The notes: generated by a model from the sequence alone, not told the origin. Counted from the stretch's first letter, positions 1 through 35,974 are shown. The stretch is DNA of 64,000 bases from Armatimonadota bacterium (GCA_036504235.1 DASXVN010000005.1:76497-140496), one strand, 5' to 3'. A program made the numbers and translations.

Positions 1-960
1 CTGCCGGGCTACCGCGAGAACGAACTGGCCCCGCCGGGGACCGACGTGACCGCCCTGGGTGGCTGGTGGGCCGAGCCAGGGCGGGGGTATCTGCCGGGGA
101 CCATCCTCCATCCGGGCGGTCGGGCGGTGCTGTCCACCTACTTGACCGAGGACTGGGGCCTGGGCGCCTCCAGCCGGATTCTCTTCAGCCAGTGCGACTT
201 CTGCCATGCGATCTGGCGGCGAGAAGTCCCTGCGGCGGCAGCCTCGTCGCTGGAGACGCTGCTGGCCCGCCGGACCCTGTATACCCGCTACGTGGTCAAC
301 GATCAGGTGGAAGAGAAGCTAGGCGGCAATCGCCTGGACCTGGTTGCCGAGCAGGGCCGGGGCGGTTGCCTGCAGAGCGGCCCCCTGGCGGTCGCCTGGT
401 ACAACGGGGGAGACGTCCCCACCACCGGGGTCAGCCGCCTGCGGACCTGCGCCCTGATCCCGGAGCACTTCAGCCGCCTGGACGAGGTCTGGCTGGGCGA
501 CCAGCCGCTGGCGGACCTCACCGGCAGCAGCGAGGAAGAGGAATGGGTGTTCCTGCGCGACGGGATCACCTACCTGGGCCTCCGGCCGCTGCGCCTGACC
601 AACCACGGCCGCGGACCAGTCGTCTCCGTGGAGCGCGTGGGGCAGTTCCGGGTGGTCTCCTTCGCTAACTACCAGGGCGAGCCGCGCGACTTTCTCGGCG
701 CGGAGCTACGCCAGACCTGCGGCGGGCTCGCCTTGTGCATAGGGTCCGAGCGCGAGTGGGGAGATTTCGAGGCCTTTCGCACGGCCTGTCGTCCACTAGA
801 ACTGTCCGACACCCGCTATGAGAGCCAGCGCCGGCTGGTGTGTCGCTGGGGCGAGTGGGAAGCTGACGTCCTGTGGGACATGCAGACGGAGGAGATCAAG
901 CGCGCCACGCGAAATGGAATACCGCTGGACGAACCGTTCCTGCAGTACGGCCCCGCCTGA
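1..960 (+). CDS. Hypothetical protein, 5'-truncated. The frame is open from the first base of the window.
   Basis: The reading frame that contains ORF 46..960 has no stop back to position 1. No recognisable motif. Stop at 958-960. Confidence 0.4.
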   Translation: MPGYRENELAPPGTDVTALGGWWAEPGRGYLPGTILHPGGRAVLSTYLTEDWGLGASSRILFSQCDFCHAIWRREVPAAAASSLETLLARRTLYTRYVVNDQVEEKLGGNRLDLVAEQGRGGCLQSGPLAVAWYNGGDVPTTGVSRLRTCALIPEHFSRLDEVWLGDQPLADLTGSSEEEEWVFLRDGITYLGLRPLRLTNHGRGPVVSVERVGQFRVVSFANYQGEPRDFLGAELRQTCGGLALCIGSEREWGDFEAFRTACRPLELSDTRYESQRRLVCRWGEWEADVLWDMQTEEIKRATRNGIPLDEPFLQYGPA

Positions 961-1085
961 GGGAGTACCCGCGGGGACTGATGCAGACAGGCCTGCCCTA
1001 ACTTGCGTTGCTCTCGTCATCGTTGGAGTATTTCAGCTTTGCGCAGTATCTGCGACGGGTTGACTCCTGGGGGAGGCGATGGGGC

Positions 1086-1412
1086 ATGAGAGGTCTATGG
1101 GTCTGGCTGATTTTGATGTTGCTGGCGGCGCTGGTGGTAGGCACGTTGGTCAGGGCGTCGGGGTTACAGCGAGCCAGCGCGGAGGCGCTTCCGGGAGGAC
1201 CGCCGTCGTTCGAGCGCGACGCCCACGCCTATTGGGTCTGGCTGGCGGCCCTGCGCGAGTCGGATCCCGCCCTGTTCAAGGCCTATGCGGTGGAATGCTC
1301 GGGCTTGCCGGTCGAGTACCAGGCGGCGGGGAAAGCTCCGCTCTCCTTTGACGGTTTCCGATCCCGAGCCTGGGAGAGGGTAAACGCCCGCGCCGGCGGA
1401 GGGGCCGGTTGA
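1086..1412 (+). CDS. Small membrane-anchored hypothetical protein (N-terminal TM helix 'LWVWLILMLLAALVVGTLV').
   Basis: An internal ATG at 1086 is preceded by 'GGGGGAGG' at 1069-1078. The ORF track begins at an upstream TTG (1008). Hydrophobic N-terminus. Confidence 0.3.
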   Translation: MRGLWVWLILMLLAALVVGTLVRASGLQRASAEALPGGPPSFERDAHAYWVWLAALRESDPALFKAYAVECSGLPVEYQAAGKAPLSFDGFRSRAWERVNARAGGGAG

Positions 1413-1505
1413 GCCGAGGGGCGAGGTGGCGAGGACACCGCGCCGACCACGTCAGGGGCGGACTTTTGTGCTGCCCGAATCAAAACTGAGGAGACTACTA
1501 TTCGC

Positions 1506-2630
1506 ATGAAACCCGATACGAAATGCCGTCCCAAGTGGAAGAGCGCCATGACCGACCGGGAGCGCTTCAACAACCAGATGCACTACCGCCCCGTGGACCG
1601 TTGCTTCAACATGGAGTTCGGCTACTGGGCCGAGAACTACCAGCAGTGGGACATCTTTGTGGACAACGAGATCCAGAACGACAGCGAGGCGGATGTCTTC
1701 TTTGGCTTTGACAAGCTGGGCGGGGTCGGCGGCACCGTGGGGATGAACCCGGCCTTCCCTAGCACGGTTATCGAGGAGACTGCCACCACCCGCATCCTGA
1801 TGAACGGTGACGGCCTGCTGGCCGAGGTGCCCAAGGACGGCCACGACACGATTCCGCACTACGTCAAGGCCAGCATCGTCACCCCCGACGACTGGAAGCG
1901 CTGCAAGGAAGAGCGCTACCAGCTAGACGACCCGGCGCGGATTGTGGACGTAGCGGCGCTCCAGCAGCAGCACCCGACCGACCGGGACTATGCCCTGGGC
2001 GTCAGTTGCGGTTCCATGATCGGCGTGCCCCGCAACATCCTCACCTTCGAGGGCCTGGCCTACGCCACCTACGACTATCCGGAGATGGTCGAGGACATGG
2101 TGGAGACCATGTGCGTCATGGTGGAGCACTTCCTGGATCAAGTGCTGGGGCATCTCGACTTCGACTTCGCCACCGGCTGGGAGGATATTTGCTTCAAGAA
2201 CGGTCCCATCGTCTCGCTGAAGTTCTTCCAGAGCGTCGTGGTGCCGCGCTACAAGCGGATCAGCAAGCGGCTGCACGCACACGGCATTGACCTGTGGTAC
2301 ACCGACTGCGACGGCGACGTGCGTCCGCTGATGCCGAGCTTCCTGGAGAGCGGCATCAACTGCCTGTTCCCCTTCGAGGTCAACGGCTGCGCCCATCCCT
2401 CCGAGTTGCTCAACGAGTACGGCAAGGACCTGCGCATCATGGGCGGCGTGGACAAGATTGAGCTAGGCAAGGGCAAAGAGGCGATCAAGGCGTACCTGGA
2501 GACCCTGGTGCCCCTGGTAGAGCGCGGCGGGTACATCCCCTTCTGCGACCACCGCTGCCCGCCCAACGTCAAGCCCGACGACTACCTGTACTACCTGGAT
2601 CTCAAAGAAGCCATGTTTGGCATGCACTAG
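1506..2630 (+). CDS. Uroporphyrinogen-decarboxylase (URO-D) family protein.
   Basis: The N-terminal 'MTDRERFNNQMHYRPVDRCF' resembles the URO-D/MtaA-like family N-terminus (MTxRER...DR.P). RBS 'GAGGAG' lies upstream of ATG 1506. Confidence 0.45.
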   Translation: MKPDTKCRPKWKSAMTDRERFNNQMHYRPVDRCFNMEFGYWAENYQQWDIFVDNEIQNDSEADVFFGFDKLGGVGGTVGMNPAFPSTVIEETATTRILMNGDGLLAEVPKDGHDTIPHYVKASIVTPDDWKRCKEERYQLDDPARIVDVAALQQQHPTDRDYALGVSCGSMIGVPRNILTFEGLAYATYDYPEMVEDMVETMCVMVEHFLDQVLGHLDFDFATGWEDICFKNGPIVSLKFFQSVVVPRYKRISKRLHAHGIDLWYTDCDGDVRPLMPSFLESGINCLFPFEVNGCAHPSELLNEYGKDLRIMGGVDKIELGKGKEAIKAYLETLVPLVERGGYIPFCDHRCPPNVKPDDYLYYLDLKEAMFGMH

Positions 2631-2748: not shown

Positions 2749-5700
2749 ATGTTTGTCAAATCTGTGCGGCTCTGGGTGGTTGGCGCGACTCTGGTCGGGC
2801 TATTGTCGGCCTCCGGGGCGGGGGCCAATCTTGCGCCCAATCCGGGCTTCGAGGAGGGGGCCGAGGGGACCTGCGCCGCCTGGCAGGTCACCGAAGCGGG
2901 CGTGCCGGGAGAGGGCGGGGCGGTGGCCTCGTGGACGACCGAGCAAGCCCATTCCGGAAAGCGCAGCCTCAAGCTGCAGATGACCGGCGACGGTATGGGC
3001 TACGTCCTGGTCGGCTCGCCCCCGCTGCCGGTCGTCGGGGGCTATGAGTACGAGCTGTCCTTCTGGTACAGATCCAGCGGTCTGCGCCCCGAGAACGCCG
3101 AGCGCACGCAGTATTCGGCGATGATGGCGGACAACTTCCTGTGCAGCGCGGCGCCCGCTAAGTACTTGGCCAACCGCCGCCTCCCGCTCTACCAGGATTC
3201 CCCGGAATGGCAGCGGGTGAGCCTGACCTACCGGGTGACCGAACCCGGAGCCGCGACCGTGCAGTTGCGCCTGGCCCTGGGCGCCCGTATGCCCGGGCTC
3301 AAGCCGGTCGTGTACCTTGATGACGTGTCCCTCGAGCCGCTCGACGCTTCCCTCCCTAACGGTGGTTTTGAGGCCGGCGCCGAGGGTCCGGACGGCTGGC
3401 GGCACAGCGACACGGGCAATCCGGCCTGGACCCGCGACCAGGCGCACGGGGGCCAGCGGAGCGTCTCCCTCAGCGAATCGCCCCTCGGCCAGCCCAGCGC
3501 CTGGTACACCGACCTCCCCTGCCGGCCGGACCGCAAGTATGGCCTCAGCGGCTGGATCAAGACCGCCAAACTCAACCCCAACGCCCTTCCCCCGGGCGCC
3601 GTGGTGGCGCTGACTTTCCTGGATGCGCAGGGGGCCGCGGTGGGGGCGCCGGCGGTTAGCGGCCCGGTCGCGGGGGATAGCGCCTGGACCCGGGTGCAGG
3701 TGGAGCCGCAGGTCGCCCCGCCGGGGGCGGTGCTGCTGCGCGCGTCGGTCCAGATGGTCTTTTGCGGCGGCACGGCCTGGTTTGACGACCTCGACCTGAG
3801 CCTGGCCCCCACCGAGGCCGCTACGGTACGACGCGTGGCCCGCACCGTGACCGGGCCGGAGCCCGGCGTAACGTATGCCCCGAATCTCGTGCCCAATCCG
3901 ACCCTGGAGGAGGGCGCCGACGGCAAGCCCGTCGGCTGGACCTTCGTGGGCAAGTCCGACCCCGATTGGACCCCGCAGGAACTGGACACCTACTATAACG
4001 GCAACGGCGGCCGGCCCCTGCCCAGCATGGGGCGGGCGCGGGGCGAGTGGAGCGACGAGGCCTTCGCCGGCAAACACTCGCTGCTGCTGATTCCGGTGGA
4101 GCCGCCGCTGAGCAAGGTTAACCGCTGGTACGGCGAGCAGGAGGTAGACGCCTACTGGCAGTCCGACGCGATGCCCTGCGCGCCGGGGCAGCAGTATTTC
4201 GCCGCGGCGTGGCTCAAGGTGACCAACGACTTCCGCGGGACCTGGAACGGGCCGCTACGGGTCTTCTTCTACGACGCCCAGGGCAATCGCCTCAACACCG
4301 CCCTGCCGCGCACCGCCTTCGAGCCGTGGAGTCCCGGGCAGTGGGCCTGGTACTGCACCGCGCCGCTGACCGCTCCCGCGGGGGCGGCGACGATGCGGCT
4401 GATCCTCAACCAGGGCCTGCGCGCCAATGCGGGCACTTTTGGGCGGATGTGGGCCGACAATCTGGCGGTGTGGGCGCGGCCGGAGCTGGGCCGGGACTTG
4501 CCCGCGCCGGCCACGTACACCGCGGAGAGCTTCCGGCACTTCCTCTTTGACACGCATCGCCAGGTGCGGCCGCCCTATCTGCCCGCGCCGGACTTCGTGC
4601 CGACCGGGGATACCACCTGCGTCAAGGTGAGCACCAGCGCGCTGGGCAACCTTTTCTTTGACCCGAAGCAGCCCACTCCCCTGACCGTGACCGTGGGCAA
4701 CTTCCTGGCCGAAAAGCGGTCGGTGGTGGTGCGCTTGACCAAGTACAGTTGGCAAGGCGCGCGGACCGAGTTGCCGCCGGTGCCGGTGTCCCTGAACGCC
4801 TGGAGCGAGACGGCGGCGCCCGTCGCTCTGCCCGCGGCCGGCAAATACGACTGCTACTACGTGGAGGCGACCGTGCGGGAAGCGGGCGCCCCGACCGGCT
4901 CGGGATTCGGCCGTCTCGCGGTGCTGCCCCGGCCCACGCGCCCGCACTATCCGGCGGCGGAGAGCCACTGGCAGGTCTCCGTCGGCCTCCAGCCGGGAGA
5001 CATGCAGGCCGGCGCTCCGGGCGCTGAGCGGCTGGCGGCAGCGCTCAAGTTGGTGGGCTTCGGCTCGGCCCGGCTGCAGCTCTTCCCGCCGGGGCCGACG
5101 GCGACCAGCGCCCAGGTCGAGGCGACGGTGGACGCGCTGCGGCCCACCCTGGCCTACTTCAAGTCGCTGGGCCTGGACGTGGTCCTCAACATCCAGCAGC
5201 CGGGTAAGGAAATCGCCGCTCAAATCGGCCGCCTGCTAGGCAGCGACGTCGCGGTCTGGGACGTCGGCGGCGTGGAGCAGGCCAATCTGGTCTCCCCGGG
5301 CATCTGCGCCTACGGGTCCATGAAGGTGGAAGACTACGACCGGGCGGTGTCCGAGACGGTTGACGGCCTACGCTCGGCCCTGCCGCAGGCCAAGATCATG
5401 GGCGGCGCCATTGCTACCGACATGGAGGCCAAGGTCCTCCAGCGCTGGTACCAGGCCGGAATCGCCCAGAAGTTTGACGGCTTCACCTACAACACCTACA
5501 TGGGCTGGCCCCTGGTCCTGAAGAACAACTTCGCGGTGATGGACAAGCACGGCGACAGCCGCAAGCCCGCGTGGATTGAGGAAATCCCGGTGTCGTACGG
5601 CATCTACGGGGCCAACCGGCTCATCAGCGAGCAGACCGCCTCGCGCGACCTGGTGCGCACCTTTGTGAGCCTGCTTAGCGACTTCTCCCCGCGCTTCCAG

Positions 5701-7024: not shown

Positions 7025-9475
7025 CTATTTCGGCGGCGGCGGGCCGCCCGCGCCGGTGACGGTGGGCGGCGGCGTCGGGGCCGGGCCGGTGGGCAGCTCG
7101 GGCGCTACCCGCTGCACCGGCTTGAGCACGGTTTGCCCCAGGTCCACCGTTTGGCCCGGCGTGCAGGTGACGTCCTGCGGCGTCCCGCCTCCGGTATTCC
7201 CGTCCGGCCCCCAGAAGTTGACCCGGTAGGCCAGGCCGGGTATCAGGCCCTCCGCCTGCCACTTGCCCTGGGCGTCGGTGCTCGTCTGCCGGTTGCCGCC
7301 GCCCAGCGCCTGCAGCCGGCTCATTATCTCCTGCGGCGCTTGGCTGTCGCTGTAGAATTGGACCTGCACGCCCGGCTGCGGCTTGCCCGCCTCGTCCACG
7401 ATCTGCCCGGTAGCGCTGCCCAGGGCGGTGAGACGTAACTGGGCGTTCCCCGCCTGGTCCGCTGCGATCTCCACCGTGCCGACCAGCGGATGAATCGGGT
7501 CCATCGCATACAGGATCGCCATCGGGGGGGGCGGTGGCTGGGGGTCGCCCGGCTTCACCGGTGCCATGGGCTTCATCCGCGGCAGGGACGGCGGCACATG
7601 CGGGAGGGTGAAGTGGCCGTTCGCGTCGGTCTCCACGGCCTCCGGCGCAAGAGCCGCGTAGACCAGCGCGCCGACGGCGGGCCGCCCGCGCAGGTCCAGC
7701 ACCGTCCCCGCCACTGTCTTGCCCTCGCGGTCAATGACCAGCGTCGGCACCGCGTGCTCCTCGCCGGCCGCCAGGGTGAAGCGCGCTCCGGGCCACCCCC
7801 GGCTTACCTGGTAGAACTGGTCGCTCTGCAGCAGCAGGAACACGTCATCCCCAGCCGGCAGCGGCCCCAGCCGCGCTTGGCCCAGAGCGTCCGTCGCTAC
7901 CGGCGGCAGCGCGGCGTACCCTCTGACCGGTTGCTCCCTCGGCGGGTCCGGCTGGCCGGGGCTCACCTGCGCCGCGACCAGCACGTCTTTCAGGGGCCGC
8001 CCTTGCGGGTCGGTGGCCTGGCAGGTCACGTACGCGCCGGGGCTGAGGATCAGGATCACTTCGTCCGGCGCTTTGTCCACCCAGGCCTCCGCGACCAGGC
8101 CGGTGGCCGGGTCCTGCGCCAGAATCAACTGCGCGCCGCCCCCGCCCCAGGGATTCCCCATCGGGAAGGGCAGCGACCACGCACCGGTCGCATCGGTCTT
8201 GATGCGGTAGGCACTCGCGACGAACGAGGGCATGCTGGCTACTCTAACCTCCAGGCCCGAGGCGGGCGTCCCGTCGGGCCCCTGGAGATGCCCCTTGAGG
8301 AGCGTCGGCGGCGTCACCACGAAGTCAACGCCCTCGCGGGTTTCACCTTCTTTGAGGTCGAACTGCGGGCGGTTTTGATCTCCCTGCCCGCCCCAGTAGA
8401 GGCCTCCCTGGGCGTACACGCTCACCTGCACATGCCCCGCCGGCACCCGCACCTCGTAGGCGCCGTCCGGGCCGATTTTCACCTCATAGCTGCTGCGGGC
8501 GGGCGTCTTCACGTCGGACCAAACTAGAAAGCCGGCGACATCGGCGCTCGGCCGGCCGGTCGCCGCGTCCGTGACCTTCCCGCGCACCAGAGCTCCCGGG
8601 GTGAGCGTCAGGTCCAGTCCTTTCACTTCATCGCCGGGTTTCAAGACCGGCAGCATCACAGGGGCCGCCACCCAGCCCGCCGGGGGTTCCACGATCTCCA
8701 GTGCCCCGCGGGTGATTCCGAGCCCGTTTAGTCGGTAAGCGCCCTGGTTGTCAGTAACCGCCTGGACAAGTTCGCTGCCCGTCGAGATGCTGACCTTAAT
8801 GCTCGCCACCGGCTGGCCCTCCCGCAGCACGCGGCCGCTGATCGTGGCTTCCGGCGCGAGGATCGTCGGCAGCGTCGCGCCGCCCACGTGAACGACCTGG
8901 CTTACCTCCGCTCGCCTCGGACCCGTGACGACCAAGGACAACTGGTACCCAGCGGGTAGGTCGGGGAAGGAGTAGCGCCCCTCGGGGTCGGTGGTAGCCA
9001 CAATAGCGCCGGACCCGCGCAGGTACGGCGAATTGCTGTAGTTCTGGTCGGACCGGATCAGCGCGGCCACCTTCACGGTCGCGCCGGCCAGGGGGTTGCC
9101 GTCGGGATCGCAGACCCGCCCGCGGTAAGTCGCCGGATTGTCGCCCAGACGGACGGTGATTGGCCCGGGAGGGGTCCCGGTCACCTGGGTCCAGCCGAGT
9201 GCGTAGCCAGGCTTCAGGGCGATCACGGAGCGCGAGCGCGACTCCGGGCCGGCGGCGACGGCCAGGCGGAAGCTCCCGTCGGGGCCGGAGGTGGTCTCGT
9301 CCCAAGTGGGCACGGTGCCGGCGCCGCCCGCCCCGACCCGCGCCCCGGCGGCGGGCGTGCCGTCGGGGAGGAGGACCTGGCCGGTGATCGTGACCGGGTC
9401 GGCGGCGAAGCCAGGCGCGGCCAGACAGAGGCAAAGCAGCGGCAGGAAACGCAACCAAGCAGAGCGAGACGGCAT
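7025..9475 (-). CDS. Secreted protein made of repeated carboxypeptidase-regulatory-like (CarbopepD_reg) beta-sandwich domains, with a Pro-rich C-terminus.
   Basis: Signal peptide 'MPSRSAWLRFLPLLCLCLAAPGFAADP'. Recurrent modules 'ITGQVLLPDGTPAAGARV', 'YRGRVCDPDGNPLAGATVKV' and 'ISGRVLREGQPVASIKVS'. C-terminal tail 'PTGPAPTPPPTVTGAGGPPPPK'. Confidence 0.55.
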   Translation of the reverse strand: MPSRSAWLRFLPLLCLCLAAPGFAADPVTITGQVLLPDGTPAAGARVGAGGAGTVPTWDETTSGPDGSFRLAVAAGPESRSRSVIALKPGYALGWTQVTGTPPGPITVRLGDNPATYRGRVCDPDGNPLAGATVKVAALIRSDQNYSNSPYLRGSGAIVATTDPEGRYSFPDLPAGYQLSLVVTGPRRAEVSQVVHVGGATLPTILAPEATISGRVLREGQPVASIKVSISTGSELVQAVTDNQGAYRLNGLGITRGALEIVEPPAGWVAAPVMLPVLKPGDEVKGLDLTLTPGALVRGKVTDAATGRPSADVAGFLVWSDVKTPARSSYEVKIGPDGAYEVRVPAGHVQVSVYAQGGLYWGGQGDQNRPQFDLKEGETREGVDFVVTPPTLLKGHLQGPDGTPASGLEVRVASMPSFVASAYRIKTDATGAWSLPFPMGNPWGGGGAQLILAQDPATGLVAEAWVDKAPDEVILILSPGAYVTCQATDPQGRPLKDVLVAAQVSPGQPDPPREQPVRGYAALPPVATDALGQARLGPLPAGDDVFLLLQSDQFYQVSRGWPGARFTLAAGEEHAVPTLVIDREGKTVAGTVLDLRGRPAVGALVYAALAPEAVETDANGHFTLPHVPPSLPRMKPMAPVKPGDPQPPPPPMAILYAMDPIHPLVGTVEIAADQAGNAQLRLTALGSATGQIVDEAGKPQPGVQVQFYSDSQAPQEIMSRLQALGGGNRQTSTDAQGKWQAEGLIPGLAYRVNFWGPDGNTGGGTPQDVTCTPGQTVDLGQTVLKPVQRVAPELPTGPAPTPPPTVTGAGGPPPPK

Positions 9476-9820: not shown

Positions 9821-11185
9821 ATGGGCACCTCGACGTCGTCGCGGGTACGGACGTTGGCGGTAGTACTGCTGATGAGTGGGTGGTTAGGGGTGGCGGTCTC
9901 GGTCGGCTGGGCGGGGATGGCCCAACAATCCCCGGTCTTCAGCGCCAAGGGCCAGGCGGTATACGAAGGGCCGCCGCCGGCGTTGGGCGCGCCCGGTCCC
10001 GACGGCCTGTCCCGGCCCCCCGGTCCCACCAATCTCCGGCTCTACACCACCGGCGGTCAGCCCTCGCCGGTCACGCGCGAGAAGACCGACGTAACTTTGG
10101 ACCTCGTGGCCAAGTACGGCGACGACAAGGACCAGGACCTGCGCCGGTACGAGGCGACCTTCAGCGGGCACTACGTGGTCCGCAACAAGAAGCAGGAGAA
10201 GGTCACCGTCAACGTCTTTTTCCCCTATCCCTCCAGCGCCGACACCATCCCCGGCGCGCGGGTGATGGTCGGCGGCCATGAGCCGGACGGGGCCAAGTAC
10301 ACCCACCAGGGCGTCCAGTGGGAGAGCAGCTTCGATCCGGAAGAGGCCAAGGATATCGTCATCGAGTACCGCGCCTTCGGCACCGAGGACTTCTCCTACA
10401 TGCTGGACCGCGACGAGCGCCTCGGGGAACTCAGCTTTAAGCTCGCGGTAACCGGGACCGAACGCCGGCCTGAGCTGCCCGCGCGCGTCTGCCTGGAGCC
10501 CAGCGGCCCGCTGACCCGGACGGCGGACGGCTGGCACGCCGAGTGGGTTTACACCAACCTGCTGACCACGCGGGACATCGTCATTGTGATTCCGCCCCGC
10601 CTGATGGGAAGCAACCTCGCCTTGTTCTCGAGCCGGCTGGTCTGGGCCGGCCTCCTCACGGTGATCCTGTTCGGTTTGGTTCTGTTCACCGGCGCGGTGG
10701 TCGCCCGGCGGCCCCTGGGCGTCGGCCAGTTTCTGCTGATCGTCCTGGCGCTGGTCACCTTCTACCCGGTCTTGCTGTATATGTCGCAGTATCTGCCCGT
10801 GGCGGCGGCCTTCTGGATCTCCTACCTGGCGGTGAGCGGGCTGGTGCTGGCGAATCTGCGGCGGGGGCAGGGGCTAAGCTTTGCCCTGCGCTATGGCGGC
10901 TTTGCCCTGGTGGTGCTGCTGGGCCTCTCGACCGCGGCCGCTCTGGCCACCAAGGGCTCGGGCGCGCTGGTGACCGTGGGCTGGCTGCTGCTGGTTGGCT
11001 ACATCATGTCCGTGGCGCCGGGCGTGGCCGCGGCGATCAAGGCCGCGCGGCCGCCGCTGCCTCCCGCCCCGCCGCCCCCGGCTCCGCGCCCCTCTCGCCC
11101 GGTCGCCCCGCAACCCGGCGACGCCGGTGCGGCGGAGGAGCCTCGCCCGGCCTCCGCAGAGGCCTCCGAACCAGCGTCACCCTAG
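9821..11185 (+). CDS. CreD-family inner-membrane protein (cell-envelope integrity protein CreD-like).
   Basis: N-terminal TM helix, a ~250-aa extracytoplasmic domain, then five TM helices. The segment 'GQFLLIVLALVTFYPVLLYMSQYLPVAAAFWISYL' aligns with E. coli CreD 'MQYLLVGLSLVMFYLLLLALSEHIGFTVAWIIASL'. Pro-rich C-tail. RBS 'AAAGGA'. Confidence 0.5.
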   Translation: MGTSTSSRVRTLAVVLLMSGWLGVAVSVGWAGMAQQSPVFSAKGQAVYEGPPPALGAPGPDGLSRPPGPTNLRLYTTGGQPSPVTREKTDVTLDLVAKYGDDKDQDLRRYEATFSGHYVVRNKKQEKVTVNVFFPYPSSADTIPGARVMVGGHEPDGAKYTHQGVQWESSFDPEEAKDIVIEYRAFGTEDFSYMLDRDERLGELSFKLAVTGTERRPELPARVCLEPSGPLTRTADGWHAEWVYTNLLTTRDIVIVIPPRLMGSNLALFSSRLVWAGLLTVILFGLVLFTGAVVARRPLGVGQFLLIVLALVTFYPVLLYMSQYLPVAAAFWISYLAVSGLVLANLRRGQGLSFALRYGGFALVVLLGLSTAAALATKGSGALVTVGWLLLVGYIMSVAPGVAAAIKAARPPLPPAPPPPAPRPSRPVAPQPGDAGAAEEPRPASAEASEPASP

Positions 11186-11217
11186 CGCCCACCCAGCGGA
11201 CAGGAGTGCGCCGCTTT

Positions 11218-11961
11218 ATGCCCCAGACTGCGCTGGACTACATTGCCTCGCTCCGCGCGGAGGGCCACCGCGATGCAGATATCGCTGCGGCCCTGCGCGG
11301 CGGCGGGTGGACCCGGTGGCAGGTGCGCTACCTGCTGCGCGGAACAGTGCCGCCGGCCGCTGCGCCAGCCCGGCGGTGGCTGACCCGGACCCTGGTGTTC
11401 CTGGGGCTGCTTGGGTTGGCGCTGGTCGTGATCGCCGGGCTCTTGCGGGTCAGCGCGGAGCGCACCCTCGCGGCGCCCCCCGCCCACCCGCTGCTCCTGC
11501 CCCCCGGCGGCCTGGGGGACATGCCGCCCTCCACCAGCCGGGCACCGTGTCTGGCGCAGGTCCAGCGGCTGATGGTCGCGCAGTTGGCTTACGCCACTGA
11601 CCACGAGAACCGCTTCCCCTGTCCCCGGGACTGGAAGTTGAACCTGCGCGAGTATGGGGTCCCCGAGTCCGACTTCTGGTGCCCCGACGATGCCCGCCGC
11701 CGGCAGTGGTTCCTGGCCAGCTATGCCATGAACCAAGTCTGCGACGGAAGGTGGGGGATAGGTCCCGGTGATCCTCACCTGGTGCTGCTCTTCGACAGCG
11801 AGATGACCTCCGGCGGCCCGGAGTGCGCTCGCTTCCGCCATGATGACGGGGCGAACGTCGGCTTCGCGGACGGCCACTGCGCCTGGCGCTATCCGAGCGA
11901 CTTCAAGCTCGAGCGGTTCACCCCCCAAAGGCCGCGGAAAGTGTGGTGGCAGGACGGATGA
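11218..11961 (+). CDS. DUF1559 (H-X9-DG) pseudopilin-like domain protein. It lacks a prepilin leader; instead it has a cytoplasmic N-terminal domain and a single TM helix.
   Basis: ATG 11218 follows RBS 'AGGAG'. The C-terminal 'FRHDDGANVGFADGHCAWRY' is the DUF1559 H-X9-DG motif. The TM helix is 'LVFLGLLGLALVVIAGLL'. The N-terminal 'ASLRAEGHRDADIAAALRGGGWTRWQVRYLL' is conserved with the next gene. The ORF-track entry 10543..11961 is an upstream extension that overlaps the CreD-like gene. Confidence 0.6.
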   Translation: MPQTALDYIASLRAEGHRDADIAAALRGGGWTRWQVRYLLRGTVPPAAAPARRWLTRTLVFLGLLGLALVVIAGLLRVSAERTLAAPPAHPLLLPPGGLGDMPPSTSRAPCLAQVQRLMVAQLAYATDHENRFPCPRDWKLNLREYGVPESDFWCPDDARRRQWFLASYAMNQVCDGRWGIGPGDPHLVLLFDSEMTSGGPECARFRHDDGANVGFADGHCAWRYPSDFKLERFTPQRPRKVWWQDG

Positions 11962-13577
11962 CCGACCGCCTCGCCGAGGCTCGGGAATACCTAGCTTCTC
12001 TCCGCGCCCAGGGCCACCGTGACGCGGAGATTGCCCGCGCGCTTCGGAAGGCCGGCTGGACGCGAGCCGAGACGCGCGAGTTGCTGCACCCAGCACCGCC
12101 CAACTCGCTGGAATCGGGGACCGCTGAGGTTCGGCTCTCGCCGCCCGCGGTGGCCGAGTTTTCCCGGTGGCGGGGCTGCCTGTTAGGCCTCTCTCTGTTT
12201 GTCGTTGCGGCGCTAGTGCTCTACTCCATCGCTGCGCGCCCTCCCCGAGTTGCCTCCTCGAGCGTGTGCTTGAGCAACGTCAAGCAGCTGCTGCTCGGTT
12301 CGCTGATGTACGCCTCGGACAACGACGAACACTTTCCCCCGGCGCCCGACTGGCCGGAACGGATTTACCCGTATGTGAAGAACGCTTTGATCTATGACTG
12401 CCCCAACGACAAGTCTCCCCGCCACTATTCCGAGACCATTCGGCAACTGAGCTACACCATGAATATGGGGGCTAACCAGCTTTCCACCAAGGCCATCTCT
12501 CGGCCGGTCGAGCTGGGGGTGCTTTTTGATGGCGCCCAGGTTTGCGGCGGCTCGGAGGCTGCGGCCTTTCGCCACAACGAGGGCGCCAATGTGGGCTTCG
12601 CGGATGGCCACGCGAAGTGGCTGTCGCAGACGCAGTTCGCCCAAGTTCCGCTGCAGTACCCGACCACGGGTGGGGTAGTCGCTGAGGCCACTCCGAACCT
12701 GCCCTCGGTTGGCGCGCTTCCGACGGAAGGTAATGACGACCCCACCGAGAGGTATGACATGGTTACGGGCATGTACAAGGCCCGCCCTCGCTACCCCTCC
12801 TCCTCGTCTGACCAGATCCGCGCCAGCGTCGGCATTGAAAGCCCGGACTCCGCCTACTTCGACGAGCGCTTCACCGCAACCGCGCACGGCAGCTACACCC
12901 TCTCGGAGGACTTGCGCCGCCTGATTCGCTCCGGCAAAGCGCAACTGAAGGAGAGCTACGAGTGGGAGGGCACGATCGTCATCGAGGGGCAGCCGCAGCC
13001 GCGAACGCAGACGGTGAGCTGCCGCCTGCTGGCGCGGGACTCGTTCGGCAGCGGGGACGAGCGGGACCTTGTGCCCGGCTTGTGGGTTGCCTACGTGGTC
13101 GCAGTGCGGATGCCGGATGGCGCCTACCAATGGGCGCGGGCCGAAAATCATGTCGTGCCCCAGGGCTGGCGGTTCGGCATTCGCCCCGTCTCACCCAACT
13201 GGGCCAAGCGCGAGGATACGAGCGACCACTCGCCCGTCTACGGCAGCCAGATTCGCACCCCGGTGCGCTTTGAGGCCAAGGGCTTCCGCGACCCCGGCGA
13301 CGTGATCACCTCAGGCCTCAAGTGGGAATGGAACTTCGATGATGGCACTACCGCCACGGGCAACCCGGTCAGCCACACCTTCAAACAGTGCGGCGACTAC
13401 GACGTCTATATCCGCGCGACCTACCAGGGTCGGGTCGCGGAGTACGTGACGACGGTCCTCATCAACAGCAACGACGAGGATGACCGCATTGTCGGCCGCG
13501 AGCACGACCCCCAGATGGCGCGGGATCGCCACAAGGCCATTGACCTGAACAATGGCTACTCCCCGCCGCGGAAGTAG
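11958..13577 (+). CDS. DUF1559 (H-X9-DG) domain protein, paralog of 11218..11961, with the same N-terminal cytoplasmic domain and TM helix plus a C-terminal PKD domain.
   Basis: Its ATG (11958-11960) overlaps the upstream TGA (11959-11961) as 'ATGA'. Domains: 'EYLASLRAQGHRDAEIARALRKAGWTRAETRELL', TM 'LLGLSLFVVAALVLYSIAA', 'CLSNVKQLLLGSLMYASDNDEHFPP', 'AAFRHNEGANVGFADGHAKWLS', and PKD-like 'LKWEWNFDDGTTATGNPVSHTFKQCGDYDVYIRATYQG'. Confidence 0.6.
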   Translation: MTDRLAEAREYLASLRAQGHRDAEIARALRKAGWTRAETRELLHPAPPNSLESGTAEVRLSPPAVAEFSRWRGCLLGLSLFVVAALVLYSIAARPPRVASSSVCLSNVKQLLLGSLMYASDNDEHFPPAPDWPERIYPYVKNALIYDCPNDKSPRHYSETIRQLSYTMNMGANQLSTKAISRPVELGVLFDGAQVCGGSEAAAFRHNEGANVGFADGHAKWLSQTQFAQVPLQYPTTGGVVAEATPNLPSVGALPTEGNDDPTERYDMVTGMYKARPRYPSSSSDQIRASVGIESPDSAYFDERFTATAHGSYTLSEDLRRLIRSGKAQLKESYEWEGTIVIEGQPQPRTQTVSCRLLARDSFGSGDERDLVPGLWVAYVVAVRMPDGAYQWARAENHVVPQGWRFGIRPVSPNWAKREDTSDHSPVYGSQIRTPVRFEAKGFRDPGDVITSGLKWEWNFDDGTTATGNPVSHTFKQCGDYDVYIRATYQGRVAEYVTTVLINSNDEDDRIVGREHDPQMARDRHKAIDLNNGYSPPRK

Positions 13578-13597: not shown

Positions 13598-14539
13598 TTA
13601 CCGGTGTGGCGGATCCAGCTTGGTCAGGCTCTGCCCGGTGACCGCATCTACGGTGATGACATAGGGATGCGGCGGCCACTCGGGGCGGGCGCCGTGGTTG
13701 TCCACGGTCACCAGCCACACCGGACCGTCGTCGCCCGGGGGCCGCGGAGGGGTCCAGGCAAAGTTGAGCACCAGCCGGGATTCGCTGAGGTCCACGATAT
13801 CATCGGCCCGAGCGACGGACTGCACCTGCTGCAGCGCCGTCTGCTCGGCGTCCTGCTGGCGGACCCGCGCCTCATATAGCTCGTGGTGCTCCACCGGCGT
13901 GGCGCGAGCGATCATGTCGAGCTTCCCCGTCTCCAGAGAGACGTTGCCGGAGACCCAGGTACCCGTCACTACCCCGGGCTTCACCACCCGTTCCCAGCGG
14001 AAGGAGCGCAGGGGAGCATCGGGTGGGGTATAGGTCTTGTCGTTCGCCAGTTGCAGCCCCTCCGGCCAGCGGCCGAAAGCCCGCCGATAGGTTCGCCGGA
14101 CCAGAGCCTCCGCCTCCGCTTGCGTGCAGTTGCGGTGCGTGGCGGGGGCGCCCTGGCCGCCCAGCCACGATATCAGACTCAGGCTCTTGCCGTCCGGCGC
14201 GAAGCTCACCAGGACCCGGCGCCGTTGCGGCGACCCGCCCTGGGGGGTGTCGTCCACGTCCACCTCCAGCCACGGCGGCGACTCGGACCCCGGCTGCGGC
14301 CAGTCCTGGAAGGCCGGCTTGACCTGGAAGGGCCGCACCCCCAGGGCGCGCGCGACTACGTCCGGGGGCGTGTCGCCCGTGATCGGCAGCGGCAGGTAGC
14401 TGAGGGTGCGGTACACGACCAGCACCAGCAGTCCCAGAGCCAGCAGGACGATTAGGAGCATGAGCGGCACGGTGACGCGCAATCGGGTCGCCGGGCGCGC
14501 CGGGCTGGTCTCCGCCGGGGACGGGAGCGGGGTCGTCAT
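13598..14539 (-). CDS. Hypothetical membrane-anchored protein (Pro/Thr-rich N-terminus, one TM helix, ~250-aa extracytoplasmic domain).
   Basis: ATG at 14539 ('MTTPLPSP...'); the ORF track begins at an upstream GTG (14557). TM helix 'LMLLIVLLALGLLVLVVY'. No recognisable catalytic motif. Confidence 0.35.
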   Translation of the reverse strand: MTTPLPSPAETSPARPATRLRVTVPLMLLIVLLALGLLVLVVYRTLSYLPLPITGDTPPDVVARALGVRPFQVKPAFQDWPQPGSESPPWLEVDVDDTPQGGSPQRRRVLVSFAPDGKSLSLISWLGGQGAPATHRNCTQAEAEALVRRTYRRAFGRWPEGLQLANDKTYTPPDAPLRSFRWERVVKPGVVTGTWVSGNVSLETGKLDMIARATPVEHHELYEARVRQQDAEQTALQQVQSVARADDIVDLSESRLVLNFAWTPPRPPGDDGPVWLVTVDNHGARPEWPPHPYVITVDAVTGQSLTKLDPPHR

Positions 14540-14718
14540 GGCAGGGTCACCTCTCACGGGAGTTGCGGACCACGGCCGAACGCGGGGTCCTTCGCCGCTT
14601 GCCCCGCTTTCCCCTTTTGGGGCCCGTGCAGGTCCGCGGGGCCGGCAGAGAGAATCCGCTTAGGATGCATCTCAGGAGCTGGACTCCAGGTGAATAGGCG
14701 TCACGAAGGAGCGACTAC

Positions 14719-17700
14719 ATGAAACGTCTCATGCTGGTGGTGCTGCTGTCCCTGCTTGCCGTCTCCGCTTTCGCCGCTCCGACGACGCCGGCGGACCGCT
14801 CGCTGCTGGTCGTCGCCACCTACATCGGAGGGGCCGACTTTTTCGAGTTGCCGCTCATTCAGGTCCTGCTCAAACAGGGCTGGCACGTCCAGCGCGCCGA
14901 TATTACCGAGGTGAAGGAGCCGCTGCTCAAGCAGTTCCAGGTGGTGGTCATCACCGACGCCACCCGGCTGGACCCCGCGGCGGCCCAGCTTGACGCCATG
15001 GCGGGCACCCGGCCGATGATCGAAGGCCTCAGCCGGACGCTTTCCTCCTATGTGGAGGAGGGCGGCAACCTGTGGATTTTCGCCCGCTCCTCCAACCACA
15101 TGGGCAGCCCCGACGCGCTGAACGCCATGAACGTGATCCTCGAGCCCTGGGACGCGCAAGTCGCCCACGAGATGATCCGCGATCCGCAGCACGAGTCCAA
15201 TCAACTCCGCTACTGGCGGTACCGCTACTTCTACACCAACGCCATTACCAAAGACCCCCTGACCGAGGGCGTCACCGGTATCTGGTCGCCCAATCAGATC
15301 ATGGTGGGAATCACCTCGCCGCTGACGGTAGGCAAGGAGTGGACGCCGCTGATCCGCGGCATGAAGGGCTCCGGCTCGGACCAGGTGGTCAGCGACAACG
15401 GCTACCCCTTCGACAACGGCAAGCCGGGCCAGCAGAAGGAGGGCGTCATCGCCGCCGTTCGTACACTAGGGCAGGGCCGCATTCTGCTGACCGGATGGTG
15501 TCCCACTATCCCGGCCTTTGGCTTCAACCACGTCGTCTGGGACGACCTCATGCCCAGCGCGGGTCTTGCGGGCAAGAAGAGCGACTGGCTGACCTTCTTC
15601 ACTCGTTCCCTGGCGGTTCTCGCCGACGGGGCCAAGAACGTGGGCGGCTACGCGGGCGCCCCGGTGGTGCGCACGGAGCCTCCCCCCTCGATTATCCGCG
15701 ACTGGGACGCCGTCAAGCCGGGGGTGCCCAACCAGCCGCTATTCAAGGGCATCATCGGCGCCTCCACCAGCCTCTCTGACGGTACGGGCACGGTGGCCGA
15801 CTACGTGAAAGTGGCCCAGGAGATGGGCCTGAACTGGGTCGTCTTCACCGAGGACCTGCAGAAGATCACCGAGGATGGGTTCAAGCAACTGGTCGCCCAG
15901 TGCCAGGCCGCCTCCAGTGAGGACTTCGCCGCCATTCCGGGCCTCAAGTACCTGGAGGTCAACAACAACCACAAGATCATCGTCGGCCCCACCTGCTGGC
16001 CCAAGGCGAGCAAGTTGCACCTGCCCGACAAGACCATCTACGACCCGGTTTTCCTGTGGTTCGAGAGCGGCGTGCCCCTGCACCTGTACTACGACATGAA
16101 GGACAACGCCTACCCGGCCTACACTTATCGCGGGTACAACGCCATGGCGGTGGTGAGTTTCGACGAGGGCAAGCAGATCGAGGACGCGACCGCCGCTTAT
16201 CTGGACAACAATCATCACTGCGACCTGCTCACCCCGGTCGCGGTGAATCTGATGCGCTCGCCTGCGGCGCTGCGGACTTGCAGCTTTTACTACTACGCGC
16301 CCGCCAACAAGCTCGCCGACTGGGTGAAGGACGTGGGTCGCGAGTACCCCCGCTACGGCGGCTGGGGGCAGGGGTTCATCTCCTCAGGACCGCGCATCCG
16401 GCAGTGGGAGGCGGTCAACGGCCACCGCTTCACCGCCGGGCGCTGGTACGTGCCCGGCACCGAGCGCTGGCGCGTGGCGCTCCGCTGCGAGGCGGACGTG
16501 CCGCTCCAGACCGTGGAAATCCTGGAGAACCAGCAGGTCATCCGTACCTACCGGCCGACCGGTACTAGCTTTGAGGTCTACCTGGACGAGCTCCACGACC
16601 GCCAGAAGGTCCTGGTCGCGCGCGTGACCGACCAGAACGGCAACTGGGCCCTGACCGGCGGGATCACGCTCGACGACGGGCTGTACCGGCAGTTCCTGTG
16701 CAGCGACCGCCAGAACTACATGAGCGGCCAGCAGGACACCCGCACCGCCGACGACAAGTACGTAACCATCGGCGCTACCGGGATGATCGACAAGGACACC
16801 CGCGCGGGGTTCGGTAACGTGCAGACCTCCGACTCGCGCGCCCTCAATCCCTACGGCGTGGACGGGGGCTACGGCAACACCTTCTCGATGGGCAACCCCG
16901 TGCAGGTGCGCGGCAAGACCTGGGACTGCTACCCCTACGCGGTCTATCACCAGGGCTTCCGCTACTGCTCGCGCGACGCGATCATCTTCGACGAGCAGTA
17001 CACCCACCGCGCCGCCCCGGACTCGCCGGCCTGGCCCTCGCTGGAGAACCCCTGGCAGGCCCTGGACCCGCAGCGCTACTTCCAGGCGACGGTGACCGGC
17101 TACTACTTCCCCCACCAGTTCGGCGGCATTTCGCCCACGCTGGTGGATTACGACCTCAGCTTCGATCGCCAGCTTGATCTGAGCCGGGTCTGCAACCCGA
17201 ATATGGGCAAGTGGATCTTCTGGACGCACCGGCTGGGCTTCCACCATCCCGAGTTCCACTGGAAGACCGACCGGGTGCCGCTGAAGGGCTTTGTAGGCTG
17301 GGACACGCCGCCGACCAACGTCTACAGCGACAACTTCCCGGCGCTCAACCTGGCGACCCATGAGGGCGAGGTAGACACGGGCGTGGAGGATGTCTGCTCC
17401 CTCGTCAGCCCCGACGGCCAGACGACGACCCTGAAGGCCGGCCCCGACGCCGCGCATCCCGCGGTGTGGCAGGGGACGATGCAGCCCGGCCAGTTCCTCT
17501 CGCTCTATCCCAACCCCGCCGGCGCCGGCGGCTTCTTCCTGCTCAACGGAGACTTCCAGGCCCGCATCGAGCTGGGCTACGACTGGAAGCGCATCTATAC
17601 GGGCCTGTACGACCTGCGGTCCTTCGCGCCCGGCGACCAGTACAACGCCCGGCTGCTGCTCTTCCAGAGCAAGCTGCGCGACACCGATCCGGTCAAGTCC

Positions 17701-18210
17701 TGGACGGCCTTCCGCGATGCCTGGGGTGTCGCCGGTAAGGCCCCCGCGTACGGCCCCAAGCTCACCCGCGGGAAGGTCCTCGACACCCGCTACCTGCTGC
17801 GCCTGCAGGCGCAGGACGGGGCGGTCGTCGCCACCCTCGGCCAGGCCGATCTGGGCCAGCGGCTCCCGTTGGAGATCAACGGACTCAGCGACCACTGCAC
17901 CGCGGGCATCGTCAACAATACCCGCAAAGAATGGCTCCCCGTCGGCGTCGTGAACGGCCAGGCCTACGCCACCCTCGACACCCAGCCAGGCAGCAGCGAC
18001 GTCTACGTCGGCAACCTGGTCGCGTGCAGCCAGCCCGATTTATGGGTCACGGTGCTGCCGGTGGGGGAGGGCTTTGTGGTGGATGTCCACAATCCGACCG
18101 CGCAGGCGGTCAGCGCCACGGTGACGGCGCCGGAGGGCCTGTGGATGATCAAAGCCGGAACGAAAGCCGTAGACGTGCCCGCCGGAACCACGGTGCGGGT
18201 GGTCTGGTAA
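14719..18210 (+). CDS. Large secreted hypothetical protein (1163 aa) with an N-terminal class-I glutamine-amidotransferase-like module of the ThuA / GH42-trimerisation type. Possible glycan-active enzyme.
   Basis: Signal peptide 'MKRLMLVVLLSLLAVSAFAAP'. 'SLLVVATYIGGADFF...QVVVITDA' and 'GQGRILLTGWCP' resemble GATase1-like folds. RBS 'AAGGAG'. Confidence 0.45.
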   Translation: MKRLMLVVLLSLLAVSAFAAPTTPADRSLLVVATYIGGADFFELPLIQVLLKQGWHVQRADITEVKEPLLKQFQVVVITDATRLDPAAAQLDAMAGTRPMIEGLSRTLSSYVEEGGNLWIFARSSNHMGSPDALNAMNVILEPWDAQVAHEMIRDPQHESNQLRYWRYRYFYTNAITKDPLTEGVTGIWSPNQIMVGITSPLTVGKEWTPLIRGMKGSGSDQVVSDNGYPFDNGKPGQQKEGVIAAVRTLGQGRILLTGWCPTIPAFGFNHVVWDDLMPSAGLAGKKSDWLTFFTRSLAVLADGAKNVGGYAGAPVVRTEPPPSIIRDWDAVKPGVPNQPLFKGIIGASTSLSDGTGTVADYVKVAQEMGLNWVVFTEDLQKITEDGFKQLVAQCQAASSEDFAAIPGLKYLEVNNNHKIIVGPTCWPKASKLHLPDKTIYDPVFLWFESGVPLHLYYDMKDNAYPAYTYRGYNAMAVVSFDEGKQIEDATAAYLDNNHHCDLLTPVAVNLMRSPAALRTCSFYYYAPANKLADWVKDVGREYPRYGGWGQGFISSGPRIRQWEAVNGHRFTAGRWYVPGTERWRVALRCEADVPLQTVEILENQQVIRTYRPTGTSFEVYLDELHDRQKVLVARVTDQNGNWALTGGITLDDGLYRQFLCSDRQNYMSGQQDTRTADDKYVTIGATGMIDKDTRAGFGNVQTSDSRALNPYGVDGGYGNTFSMGNPVQVRGKTWDCYPYAVYHQGFRYCSRDAIIFDEQYTHRAAPDSPAWPSLENPWQALDPQRYFQATVTGYYFPHQFGGISPTLVDYDLSFDRQLDLSRVCNPNMGKWIFWTHRLGFHHPEFHWKTDRVPLKGFVGWDTPPTNVYSDNFPALNLATHEGEVDTGVEDVCSLVSPDGQTTTLKAGPDAAHPAVWQGTMQPGQFLSLYPNPAGAGGFFLLNGDFQARIELGYDWKRIYTGLYDLRSFAPGDQYNARLLLFQSKLRDTDPVKSWTAFRDAWGVAGKAPAYGPKLTRGKVLDTRYLLRLQAQDGAVVATLGQADLGQRLPLEINGLSDHCTAGIVNNTRKEWLPVGVVNGQAYATLDTQPGSSDVYVGNLVACSQPDLWVTVLPVGEGFVVDVHNPTAQAVSATVTAPEGLWMIKAGTKAVDVPAGTTVRVVW

Positions 18211-31142: not shown

Positions 31143-31171
31143 CCTGCGGACGCCCGAGGAGGGATAGAACC

Positions 31172-33566: not shown

Positions 33567-33664
33567 ACCGTGGCTGGCTCTGTGCGTCGCAAAGCTCGGG
33601 CCCGGAATACCGGCTCCCCGGTAGAACGCATTCTAGAGTTGCGAAAAGAAGGAGACTGAAAGTC

Positions 33665-34624: not shown

Positions 34625-34690
34625 GCGGGAAACGCGCGGGAGGCCGACGCGCCAGTATTGGCCCCGACCTCCTCGCAGGTGGCACTCACC

Positions 34691-34735
34691 CCGGTCCGGC
34701 GGGCCCCCGTGCCCTGCCGGACCGGTCTGTTTTGC
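34691..34735 (+). terminator. Rho-independent terminator.
   Basis: 10-bp stem CCGGTCCGGC/GCCGGACCGG, 15-nt loop, followed by 'TCTGTTTTG'. It lies 67 nt after the cupredoxin stop. Confidence 0.55.
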
Positions 34736-35952: not shown

Positions 35953-35974
35953 CTTTAGCTGTGCAAGCCTTACT

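Follow-up and report, generated by a model that had tools for sequence, protein, structure and literature searches.

Two tandem H-X9-DG proteins with a predicted cytoplasmic three-helix module in place of a prepilin leader

Two adjacent genes, here called A and B, encode H-X9-DG proteins that lack a class III prepilin leader; they probably represent non-polymerising, membrane-tethered pilin-fold ectoproteins that bear a cytoplasmic interaction handle and derive from prepilin-type pseudopilins. The first-pass annotation of the 64-kb stretch of DNA in which they lie (the window) had described a cytoplasmic folded segment followed by one transmembrane helix (TM) and a pilin-like H-X9-DG ectodomain. 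Hydropathy, AlphaFold2, and homology to exported pilin domains and to a PKD domain support this predicted topology; the positive-inside bias is weak (3 versus 2 Lys/Arg in the flanks), and it is on these three lines that the assignment rests. Two interpretations had been offered, a one-component regulator of the ToxR/CadC type or an uncleaved membrane-anchored pseudopilin, and it is the latter that the evidence favours.

The features of the locus are collected in Table 1. Both open reading frames were recovered where the annotation had placed them, with the N-terminal peptides it had quoted, and the proposed translational coupling was confirmed by the position of the B start codon within the ATGA that ends A. 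The products of A and B are identical to NCBI proteins P0001 and P0003, respectively, and the source genome belongs to the Armatimonadota rather than to the Planctomycetota or Verrucomicrobiota. The CreD-like gene that precedes A by 32 nt probably forms one operon with A and B. Its assignment to the CreD family proved weakly supported: its own scores are sub-threshold (14.7 bits versus a gathering score of 23 for PF06123, and 16.3 bits versus a cut-off of 275 for NF008712), and what speaks for the name is a precomputed PF06123 match in two homologues, P0167 and P0168, that are 61–62% identical to it. The orthologue of this gene in locus L004 is 74% identical and conserved in position. On the other side of the array, the 319-aa convergent neighbour gave a weak PepSY match; it also stands beside the array in L003–L005, with 55% identity to L004_9798 in the same position.

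Table 1. Features of the A/B locus, numbered from the first nucleotide of the window
Feature	Position	Strand	Basis
Upstream gene for a 454-aa polytopic membrane protein with distant CreD similarity	9821..11185	+	profile scores, homologues
AGGAG ribosome-binding site, 11 nt 5' of the gene A ATG	11202..11206	+	sequence reading
Gene A (247 aa), with N-module and TM, then a disordered linker and the pilin-fold H-X9-DG body	11218..11961	+	ORF
Gene A N-module of three helices, residues 5-40, on the predicted cytoplasmic side	11230..11337	+	
Gene A TM core, residues 58-76, TLVFLGLLGLALVVIAGLL	11389..11445	+	Kyte-Doolittle, AlphaFold2
Gene A Pro-rich disordered linker, residues 84-107	11467..11538	+	pLDDT, right-anchored alignment
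Gene A pilin-fold body, residues 108-247	11539..11958	+	
Gene A H-X9-DG motif	11839-11874	+	motif position
ATGA: gene A stop codon overlapped by gene B start codon	11958..11961	+	sequence reading
Gene B (539 aa), with N-module, TM and H-X9-DG body, followed by an unannotated domain, the PKD domain and a tail	11958..13577	+	ORF
Gene B N-module, residues 2-43, three helices	11961..12086	+	
Gene B TM segment, residues 74-92, W-R-G-C edge motif just before	12177..12233	+	Kyte-Doolittle
Gene B H-X9-DG body, residues about 104-230, begins CLSNVKQL	12267..12647	+	TIGR04294, alignment
Gene B H-X9-DG motif	12573-12608	+	motif position
Gene B extracytoplasmic domain without annotation, residues about 270-430, 'PDG..W-A-R-A-E' motif	12765..13247	+	alignments, BLASTP
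Gene B PKD domain, residues 434-489	13257..13424	+	Pfam and PDB matches
Convergent neighbour, 319 aa, single N-terminal TM	13598..14557	-	ORF comparison

Hydropathy analysis (Kyte-Doolittle, 19-residue window) revealed one hydrophobic segment per protein, with a mean of 2.74 in A and 2.49 in B. Neither contains an acidic residue, and that of A, which has no Gly at its cytoplasmic edge, lies within a helix extending from residue 53 to 83 in the AlphaFold2 model of the gene A product (mean pLDDT 86.3). The class III leader was absent, as claimed: PF07963 matched neither protein at E ≤ 1, and the prepilin motif [GA][FMLIVY][TS]..E had zero occurrences in the six frames of the window, a count that takes in any alternative start codon. 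Genes for a pilus or for type II secretion were likewise absent from the Pfam matches of the window ORFs scanned.

The bodies of A and B present the type IV pilin fold, and their designation as DUF1559 proteins holds in part. The H-X9-DG profile TIGR04294 scored 21.6 bits for A and 27.6 bits for B, above its curated cut-off of 19, whereas PF07596 gave no match to either at E ≤ 1. Homology to proteins with both PF07963 and PF07596, such as the distant matches P0008–P0020, is clear, and three relatives that carry the N-terminal module (P0044, P0049 and P0069) do pass PF07596, with 30.8–37.5 bits versus 23.3. Alignment A3 revealed blocks common to the A/B bodies and the canonical proteins (CLSNVKQL..Y..D, CP and, at the C-terminal end, RH..G.N.GFADGH). 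By these sequence criteria, A and B are divergent DUF1559 relatives and not members of Pfam PF07596. Beyond its H-X9-DG body, B has the PKD domain that had been attributed to it, matched by PF18911 (E = 1.2e-9, 38.5 bits versus a cut-off of 27), by PF00801 (E = 2.8e-7, 30.9 bits versus 23.5) and by the ColH PKD in the PDB (E = 4.9e-10). The domain between body and PKD has no sequence match in Pfam or the PDB; it is found by alignment in paralogues without an H-X9-DG body, and BLASTP matched it to L004_6873.

Canonical prepilin H-X9-DG/DUF1559 proteins (PF07963 + PF07596, TIGR04294), known from Armatimonadota, Planctomycetota and Verrucomicrobiota, share with A and B a homologous ectodomain and the pilin fold, but begin with a (K/R)-G-F-T-L-I-E leader where A and B have a three-helix module, a Pro-rich linker and an ordinary TM. 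The module was found in none of the best 80 GTDB loci with relatives of the A/B body (0/80). When the sequences were anchored on the right, FTLIELLVV appeared replaced and ILFPVFARAR retained in the relatives; the second half of the canonical alpha-1N helix, AAILFPVFARAREKA, is the same in close relatives of A and B. The TM, together with the AAILFPVFARAREKA segment that follows it in those relatives, is the counterpart of the pilin alpha-1 helix. Given this homology of the TM and the next helix to alpha-1 in canonical prepilin DUF1559 proteins, an ancestral leader has been replaced: the half with G-1/F+1/E+5 is gone, and the module and the Pro-rich linker stand in front. In A the linker (pLDDT 48–65) parts the TM helix from the alpha-1C helix (residues 108–128), so that alpha-1, continuous in a pilin, is interrupted, and in B the spacing is near canonical, about 5 residues shorter.

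As A has no G-1, B no in-register G-1/F+1 and neither an E+5, both proteins would go unprocessed and would not form filaments, in which case the TM would be a permanent signal-anchor. A different outcome would follow if module and linker together made up a folded leader of 55–75 aa, cut off by prepilin peptidase at the cytoplasmic face (after RWRG in B) or by signal peptidase I after the TM, to leave a mature pilin-like protein for assembly or release. According to mutagenesis of Pseudomonas PilA, prepilin peptidases depend chiefly on Gly at -1 and accept substitutions at +1 and +5, and B-type proteins do have a basic-Gly-Cys motif where the TM meets the cytoplasm (RWRG/C in B, WWRG/C in P0026 and L004_4240, and the same motif in P0006); small residues also occur behind the TM, VSA/E in A and IAA/R in B. 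However, this Gly is off the canonical register by 1, 2 or 5 residues, depending on the member, and is missing from A, P0002, P0004 and the three-TM variants. The hydrophobic cores of 19–21 residues fit an anchor better than a Sec signal peptide, whose hydrophobic region is shorter, and one family member (L006_1847 / P0029) consists of module and TM with no ectodomain. Moreover, the literature searched gives no pilin leader that is so large, or folded, and we regard this kind of processing as quite unlikely, although B, whose edge Gly-Cys recurs in several orthologues, may still be cut by a prepilin peptidase.

The N-modules of A and B are 58% identical to each other and were modelled by AlphaFold2 as three confident helices with no beta wing. 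Their family has the signature Y-[VI]..R..G.[ST]D..I...L..AGW....[IV]..LL, and an exhaustive search at E ≤ 1e-3 matched the module to 200 further cluster representatives. The concern that the N-terminal segment might be annotation noise was answered by its presence in other genomes, as module and H-X9-DG occur together in at least 17 cluster representatives, frequently in tandem gene arrays. Across the family, the module precedes the first TM in 58 proteins and follows the last predicted TM in 53 (37 C-terminal and 16 internal), and about 25 further proteins are soluble, some with tandem copies; where repeated, it is present in 2 to 7 tandem copies, and in large surface proteins of the beta-helix or Ig-like type it also forms the C-terminal tail. 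The span from module to body in the relatives contains either one TM or a DUF4190 hairpin plus one TM, an odd number that keeps the body outside, and the module is predicted to lie on the cytoplasmic side. Tandem arrays in L004, L006 and L007, with up to six paralogues, combine the same module with differing ectodomains or, in the module-and-TM protein mentioned above, with none, which suggests that module and TM behave as a portable anchor.

The resemblance of this segment to a helix-turn-helix (HTH) of the LuxR or sigma region-4 type, suggested at first, was not upheld: six isolated modules gave no LuxR/GerE, sigma-70 region 4 or OmpR-type winged-helix match in Pfam, even at E ≤ 10. The wingless three-helix unit is nearest to the RecX repeats, one of which its fold superposes on, and to the C-terminal domain of RepB'. 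PF22448 matched five of the six modules at E ≤ 10; its score with the B module in isolation was 28.5 bits (cut-off 26.1), the alignment covering just 23 of 54 model positions, and with full-length B it was 16.9 bits, under the cut-off. A profile of 105 module sequences matched RecX (3c1d) at E = 0.004, and matches to the RecX families PF21982/PF02631 were confined to other members of the family, P0028 and P0061 among them. This similarity to RecX and to the RepB' primase (PF21982/PF02631, PF22448) is weak and partial; RecX is a RecA regulator and RepB' a primase, whereas the module studied here is part of membrane proteins and has its own signature.

These data also bear on the ToxR/CadC interpretation, in which the module would be a putative DNA-binding HTH and the pilin-like ectodomain a sensor. 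The part of it that stands is the predicted topology, with a helical N-terminal domain inside, a single TM and an outer domain, and the third helix of A does have a net charge of +2. However, the winged helix of the OmpR type carried by ToxR and CadC is lacking in A and B, and of 105 family members 66% have a net acidic third helix and 15% a net positive one (0 in B, family mean -1.0). Modules in tandem copies or in the tails of surface proteins argue in the same direction, and runs of up to six tandem paralogues, one without any ectodomain, are unlike a sensor-regulator. A regulator of this type is therefore very unlikely; given the more basic third helix of the A/B subfamily, the module may bind nucleic acids or lipids.

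Over the 36 module codons compared between B and its L004 paralogue, 15 differences were synonymous only and 5 non-synonymous, and by this measure the N-module is under purifying selection. An annotation artefact, with true starts downstream and the N-terminal segment untranslated or in another frame, is hardly credible and in effect refuted, since, for all the long spurious ORFs that high-GC DNA produces in the window, the module is conserved at the protein level, folds confidently in AlphaFold2, has 200 matches, begins at the same start codon in six orthologues and, in both genes, follows a correctly spaced ribosome-binding site, while a downstream start would still give no prepilin motif.

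We compared A and B with other proteins of similar layout. RodZ consists of a cytoplasmic HTH, which binds MreB and not DNA, one TM and a periplasmic domain. It thus offers the same layout and, by analogy, the protein-contact logic proposed here, but its HTH is of the XRE type, its periplasmic domain is not a pilin and its sequence is unrelated. Archaeal ArlF/ArlG (FlaF/FlaG) combine an archaellin fold with an uncleaved N-terminal TM and, as predicted for A and B, have no class III cleavage site and are anchored in the membrane outside the filament. They lack a cytoplasmic domain, however, and are components of a defined motility machine, whereas the A/B window has no type IV filament genes. 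A precedent for leader replacement comes from Tuwongella immobilis, in which three SBP_bac_10 (DUF1559) proteins have Sec/SPI signal peptides (PMC8567305), so that the DUF1559 domain is delivered, as in A and B, without a class III prepilin signal; there the Sec signal is cleavable and no cytoplasmic domain is present, whereas A and B have a cytoplasmic module and an anchor that is probably uncleaved.

If A and B are fixed membrane tethers, as we favour, they would be type II (N-in/C-out) bitopic proteins descended from H-X9-DG (DUF1559-like) prepilin-type pseudopilins, neither processed by prepilin peptidase nor extracted from the membrane into a filament. The pilin-fold domain, in B together with the extra and PKD domains, would be displayed on the outer face of the cytoplasmic membrane, and A and B would be produced in coupled amounts, probably along with the CreD-like polytopic protein encoded upstream. 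The most speculative step is the role of the module, which, by analogy with RodZ, might be a protein-protein handle for self-association of the paralogues or for docking to a common cytoplasmic partner.

An unlikely but more far-reaching scheme is a trans-acting assembly code. The modules of tandem paralogues would stack in the cytoplasm, as RecX repeats do in cis, and thereby order the differing ectodomains, both pilin-fold and PKD, within a membrane complex that is defined but not filamentous; in a variant, the module would be a folded pro-leader, and assembly would be licensed once prepilin peptidase had removed it in a regulated step. If true, such a scheme would constitute a previously unrecognised organisation of pilin-fold proteins, and would give a function to a family of cytoplasmic domains that is widespread but unmodelled.

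Both N-terminal peptides quoted in the first-pass annotation were found in A and B, and each protein has a single strongly hydrophobic segment (residues 58–76 in A, 74–92 in B). Inspection of the sequence revealed an AGGAG 11 nt 5' of the ATG of gene A, and the proposed translational coupling was upheld, the ATG of gene B sitting within the ATGA that closes gene A. The PKD domain attributed to B was located by Pfam at residues 434–489. The assignment of the upstream gene to the CreD family stood only in part, as Pfam, NCBIfam and its homologues supported a weak CreD likeness. Some of these homologues (P0168, P0169 and P0172) carry zinc ribbons (PF12773, PF13240), another small domain commonly present on membrane proteins, which may parallel the three-helix module of A and B. 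A promoter and terminator scan detected no promoter, and terminator numbers were at background.

Features of the A/B region, in window coordinates
Feature	Position	Strand	Description
Polytopic membrane protein, 454 aa	9821..11185	+	ORF; packed close upstream of A
Gene A, 247 aa	11218..11961	+	ORF; gene model is NCBI protein P0001 (Armatimonadota MAG)
Gene B, 539 aa	11958..13577	+	ORF; gene model is NCBI protein P0003 (Armatimonadota MAG)
Unannotated extracytoplasmic domain of B, residues about 270–430	12765..13247	+	Conserved PDG..(Q/E)WARAE motif
Single-TM protein, 319 aa	13598..14557	-	Faint PepSY match only; 55% identical relative, convergent to the array in loci L003–L005

The neighbours of A and B encode large secreted or carbohydrate-related proteins (CarboxypepD_reg repeats, CBM9, NHL, GH35), and Pfam scans of the window ORFs detected neither pilus nor type II secretion genes. 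Partial synteny was observed between window 7025..9475 (-) and 14719..18210 (+) and positions 9938..11074 and 13948..17316 of L001, the locus of the B relative P0006; the 816-aa CarboxypepD_reg-repeat protein shares 36% identity with L001_9938, and a 1163-aa protein with no above-threshold Pfam annotation shares 29–35% with L001_13948. Further on, a housekeeping and metabolic block (29730..39025 and 42467..44731) includes a B12-binding radical SAM enzyme, a ketoacyl synthase, a cupredoxin, a PfkB kinase, 2-oxoacid dehydrogenase E2, E1alpha and E1beta components and a GH35 beta-galactosidase, and appears unrelated to A and B.

The H-X9-DG model TIGR04294 matched both proteins above its cut-off of 19 bits (A, 21.6; B, 27.6). 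PF07596 (DUF1559) gave no Pfam match in A or B at E≤1; it does match the module-bearing relatives P0044, P0049 and P0069, and the distant matches of B are proteins with PF07963 plus PF07596. Alignment A3 revealed blocks common to the body and canonical proteins (CLSNVKQL..MY..D, YPYvkN...CP, SY..N and RH..G.NvGFADGHakW). Judged by sequence, the body of A and B is a divergent pseudopilin-type H-X9-DG domain. The additional PDG..(Q/E)WARAE domain is common to B-type proteins, P0021, P0027, P0035 and the ORF L004_6873, and that of B found no match in Pfam and PDB sequence searches.

The reported absence of a class III leader was confirmed for both proteins, in which PF07963 (N_methyl) had no Pfam match at E≤1. 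When all six frames of the 64-kb window were scanned with regular expressions, no G/A-F-T-L-I-E-type motif appeared, and the only two H-X9-DG motifs were those at 11839 and 12573. The TM segments of A and B contain no acidic residue. When sequences were anchored on the CLSN cysteine, many module-bearing relatives were seen to have kept one half of the canonical alpha-1N helix: the second (AAILFPVFARAREKA) is retained, and the first (G-FTLIELLVV) is swapped for unrelated hydrophobic residues. In the gene A protein, a disordered Pro-rich linker of 24 residues also lies between the TM and the alpha-1C helix. The leader has therefore been replaced and is not just unrecognised.

The combination of module, TM and H-X9-DG body recurs in other genomes, as had been asked of it: it was found in P0002 (A-type, 49% identical), in P0004, P0005 and P0006 (B-type, 37–44%) and in 11 further 50%-identity representatives (P0026, P0035, P0044, P0045, P0049, P0057, P0064, P0067, P0069, P0149 and P0160). 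Some of these carry an inserted DUF4190 hairpin and hence three TMs instead of one (P0067 is ambiguous); the number stays odd, and therefore the body stays outside. The architecture is rare, and most clusters are metagenomic singletons. A genome scan with full-length B returned canonical body relatives only and did not include the source genome among its loci; the module was absent from all of its 80 best GTDB loci, which were nearly all from Armatimonadota, with a few from Abditibacteriota, candidate division WS1 and unclassified MAGs. The module genes stand in tandem arrays: L004 has a CreD-like gene, four module genes and a convergent 320-aa gene, L006 five to six consecutive module genes, and L007 three. 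In these arrays module and TM are joined to the H-X9-DG body alone or to the body with the extra domain and PKD; L004_6873, P0021 and P0027 have the extra domain and PKD and no body, and P0029 has nothing further. As the same unit is joined to differing ectodomains or to none, it behaves as a portable anchor. Within the six-gene array of L006, N-module ORF fragments followed by out-of-frame H-X9-DG ORFs (416..1757 and 4041..5379) are probably frameshifts, assembly errors or pseudogenes. At L006 834..1757, the canonical LFPIFARATAKA segment belongs to an H-X9-DG body that sits on a polytopic N-terminal region of apparently about 5–6 TMs, a further non-prepilin way to anchor this domain.

We consider it probable that A and B are pilin-fold ectoproteins, oriented N-in/C-out, that remain permanently anchored and do not polymerise, a signal-anchor with a cytoplasmic three-helix handle having taken the place of their class III signal. 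This model starts from demonstrated homology, fold, motif loss and module distribution; under it, A and B would not be cleaved, would not assemble into filaments, and their handle would act in protein-protein contact. An unlikely alternative is that module and linker form a giant leader that is removed from A and B, which stays alive because a W-R-G-C edge motif is conserved in B-type proteins. An N-terminally extended Sec signal is retained solely as part of this low-probability giant-leader reading. A lipobox was also considered for the G-C conserved where the TM of B begins on its cytoplasmic edge, and rejected, since this G-C precedes the hydrophobic segment and a lipobox follows it.

The module was predicted to form three short helices, both in A (5–14, 19–28 and 33–40; block-mean pLDDT 95–97 for residues 11–40) and in B (2–17, 22–31 and 36–43; pLDDT 82, from a 105-sequence alignment). 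Its supposed likeness to LuxR or sigma region 4 was not borne out, as no LuxR, sigma-4 or OmpR-type model matched at E≤10. The sole recurrent Pfam match, in five of six modules, was a partial one to RepB_primase_C (PF22448; best score 28.5 bits, cut-off 26.1, covering 23 of 54 positions), and NCBIfam returned nothing meaningful. PDB profile matches, mostly de novo designed helical proteins, reflect an idealised helical sequence and were rejected as evidence of homology. The module, with the signature Y-[VI]..R..G.[ST]D..I...L..AGW....[IV]..LL, was detected in 200 proteins at E≤1e-3 (15 at E≤1e-10) when 1.84 billion representatives were searched exhaustively with its profile. Of 137 matches classified, 58 have it at the N-terminus, ahead of the first TM, and 53 past the last predicted TM (C-terminal in 37, internal in 16), a group that includes large proteins with a hydrophobic segment at the N-terminus; about 25 were soluble, some with 2–7 tandem copies. 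The net charge of the third helix is negative in 66% of the family members and positive in 15% (A, +2; B, 0). Being always on the cytoplasmic side, often repeated and acidic in its third helix, the module is better understood as a protein-interaction unit than as a DNA-reading head, and the ToxR-like regulator proposed from the topology is quite improbable. Among the profile matches, P0022, P0023 and P0028 (1358–2842 aa) have 6–7 tandem copies; P0023, with no predicted TM, weakly matches many small helix-turn-helix families (RecX_HTH, DUF6471, DUF3606, DUF1456). Such sequences suggest a large superfamily of three-helix repeats.

An annotation artefact is hardly credible: alternative start codons do not rescue a leader, the start is shared by six orthologues, and the N-terminal segment is clearly translated, because most codon differences between B and its L004 paralogue are synonymous (15 of the 20 differing among 36).

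A and B may have functional analogues in ArlF/ArlG, which are uncleaved archaellin-fold anchors, and in RodZ, which joins a cytoplasmic helix-turn-helix to a TM and a periplasmic domain. The literature found on DUF1559, H-X9-DG, SBP_bac_10 and Armatimonadetes pseudopilins does not describe the architecture. Planctomycetota, Verrucomicrobiota and Armatimonadota have hugely expanded sets of H-X9-DG/DUF1559 pseudopilin-like proteins: Fimbriimonas has 79 PulG-like genes, 14 of them without the methylation motif (PMC4072686), and Tuwongella about 100 (PMC8567305). Three SBP_bac_10 proteins of Tuwongella with Sec/SPI signals (PMC8567305) offer a precedent for leader replacement.

What follows for the family and the module are testable leads and not answers, and current views are not overturned. 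The module is a widespread small cytoplasmic domain, without a model in the Pfam and NCBIfam copies searched, that is a mark of the cytoplasmic end in many membrane and surface proteins unrelated to one another. Variants like A and B, implausible for cleavage or polymerisation, retain the fold and the H-X9-DG motif, which suggests that the H-X9-DG domain is able to work as a membrane-tethered unit instead of a fibre subunit, and this bears on the role of the whole family.
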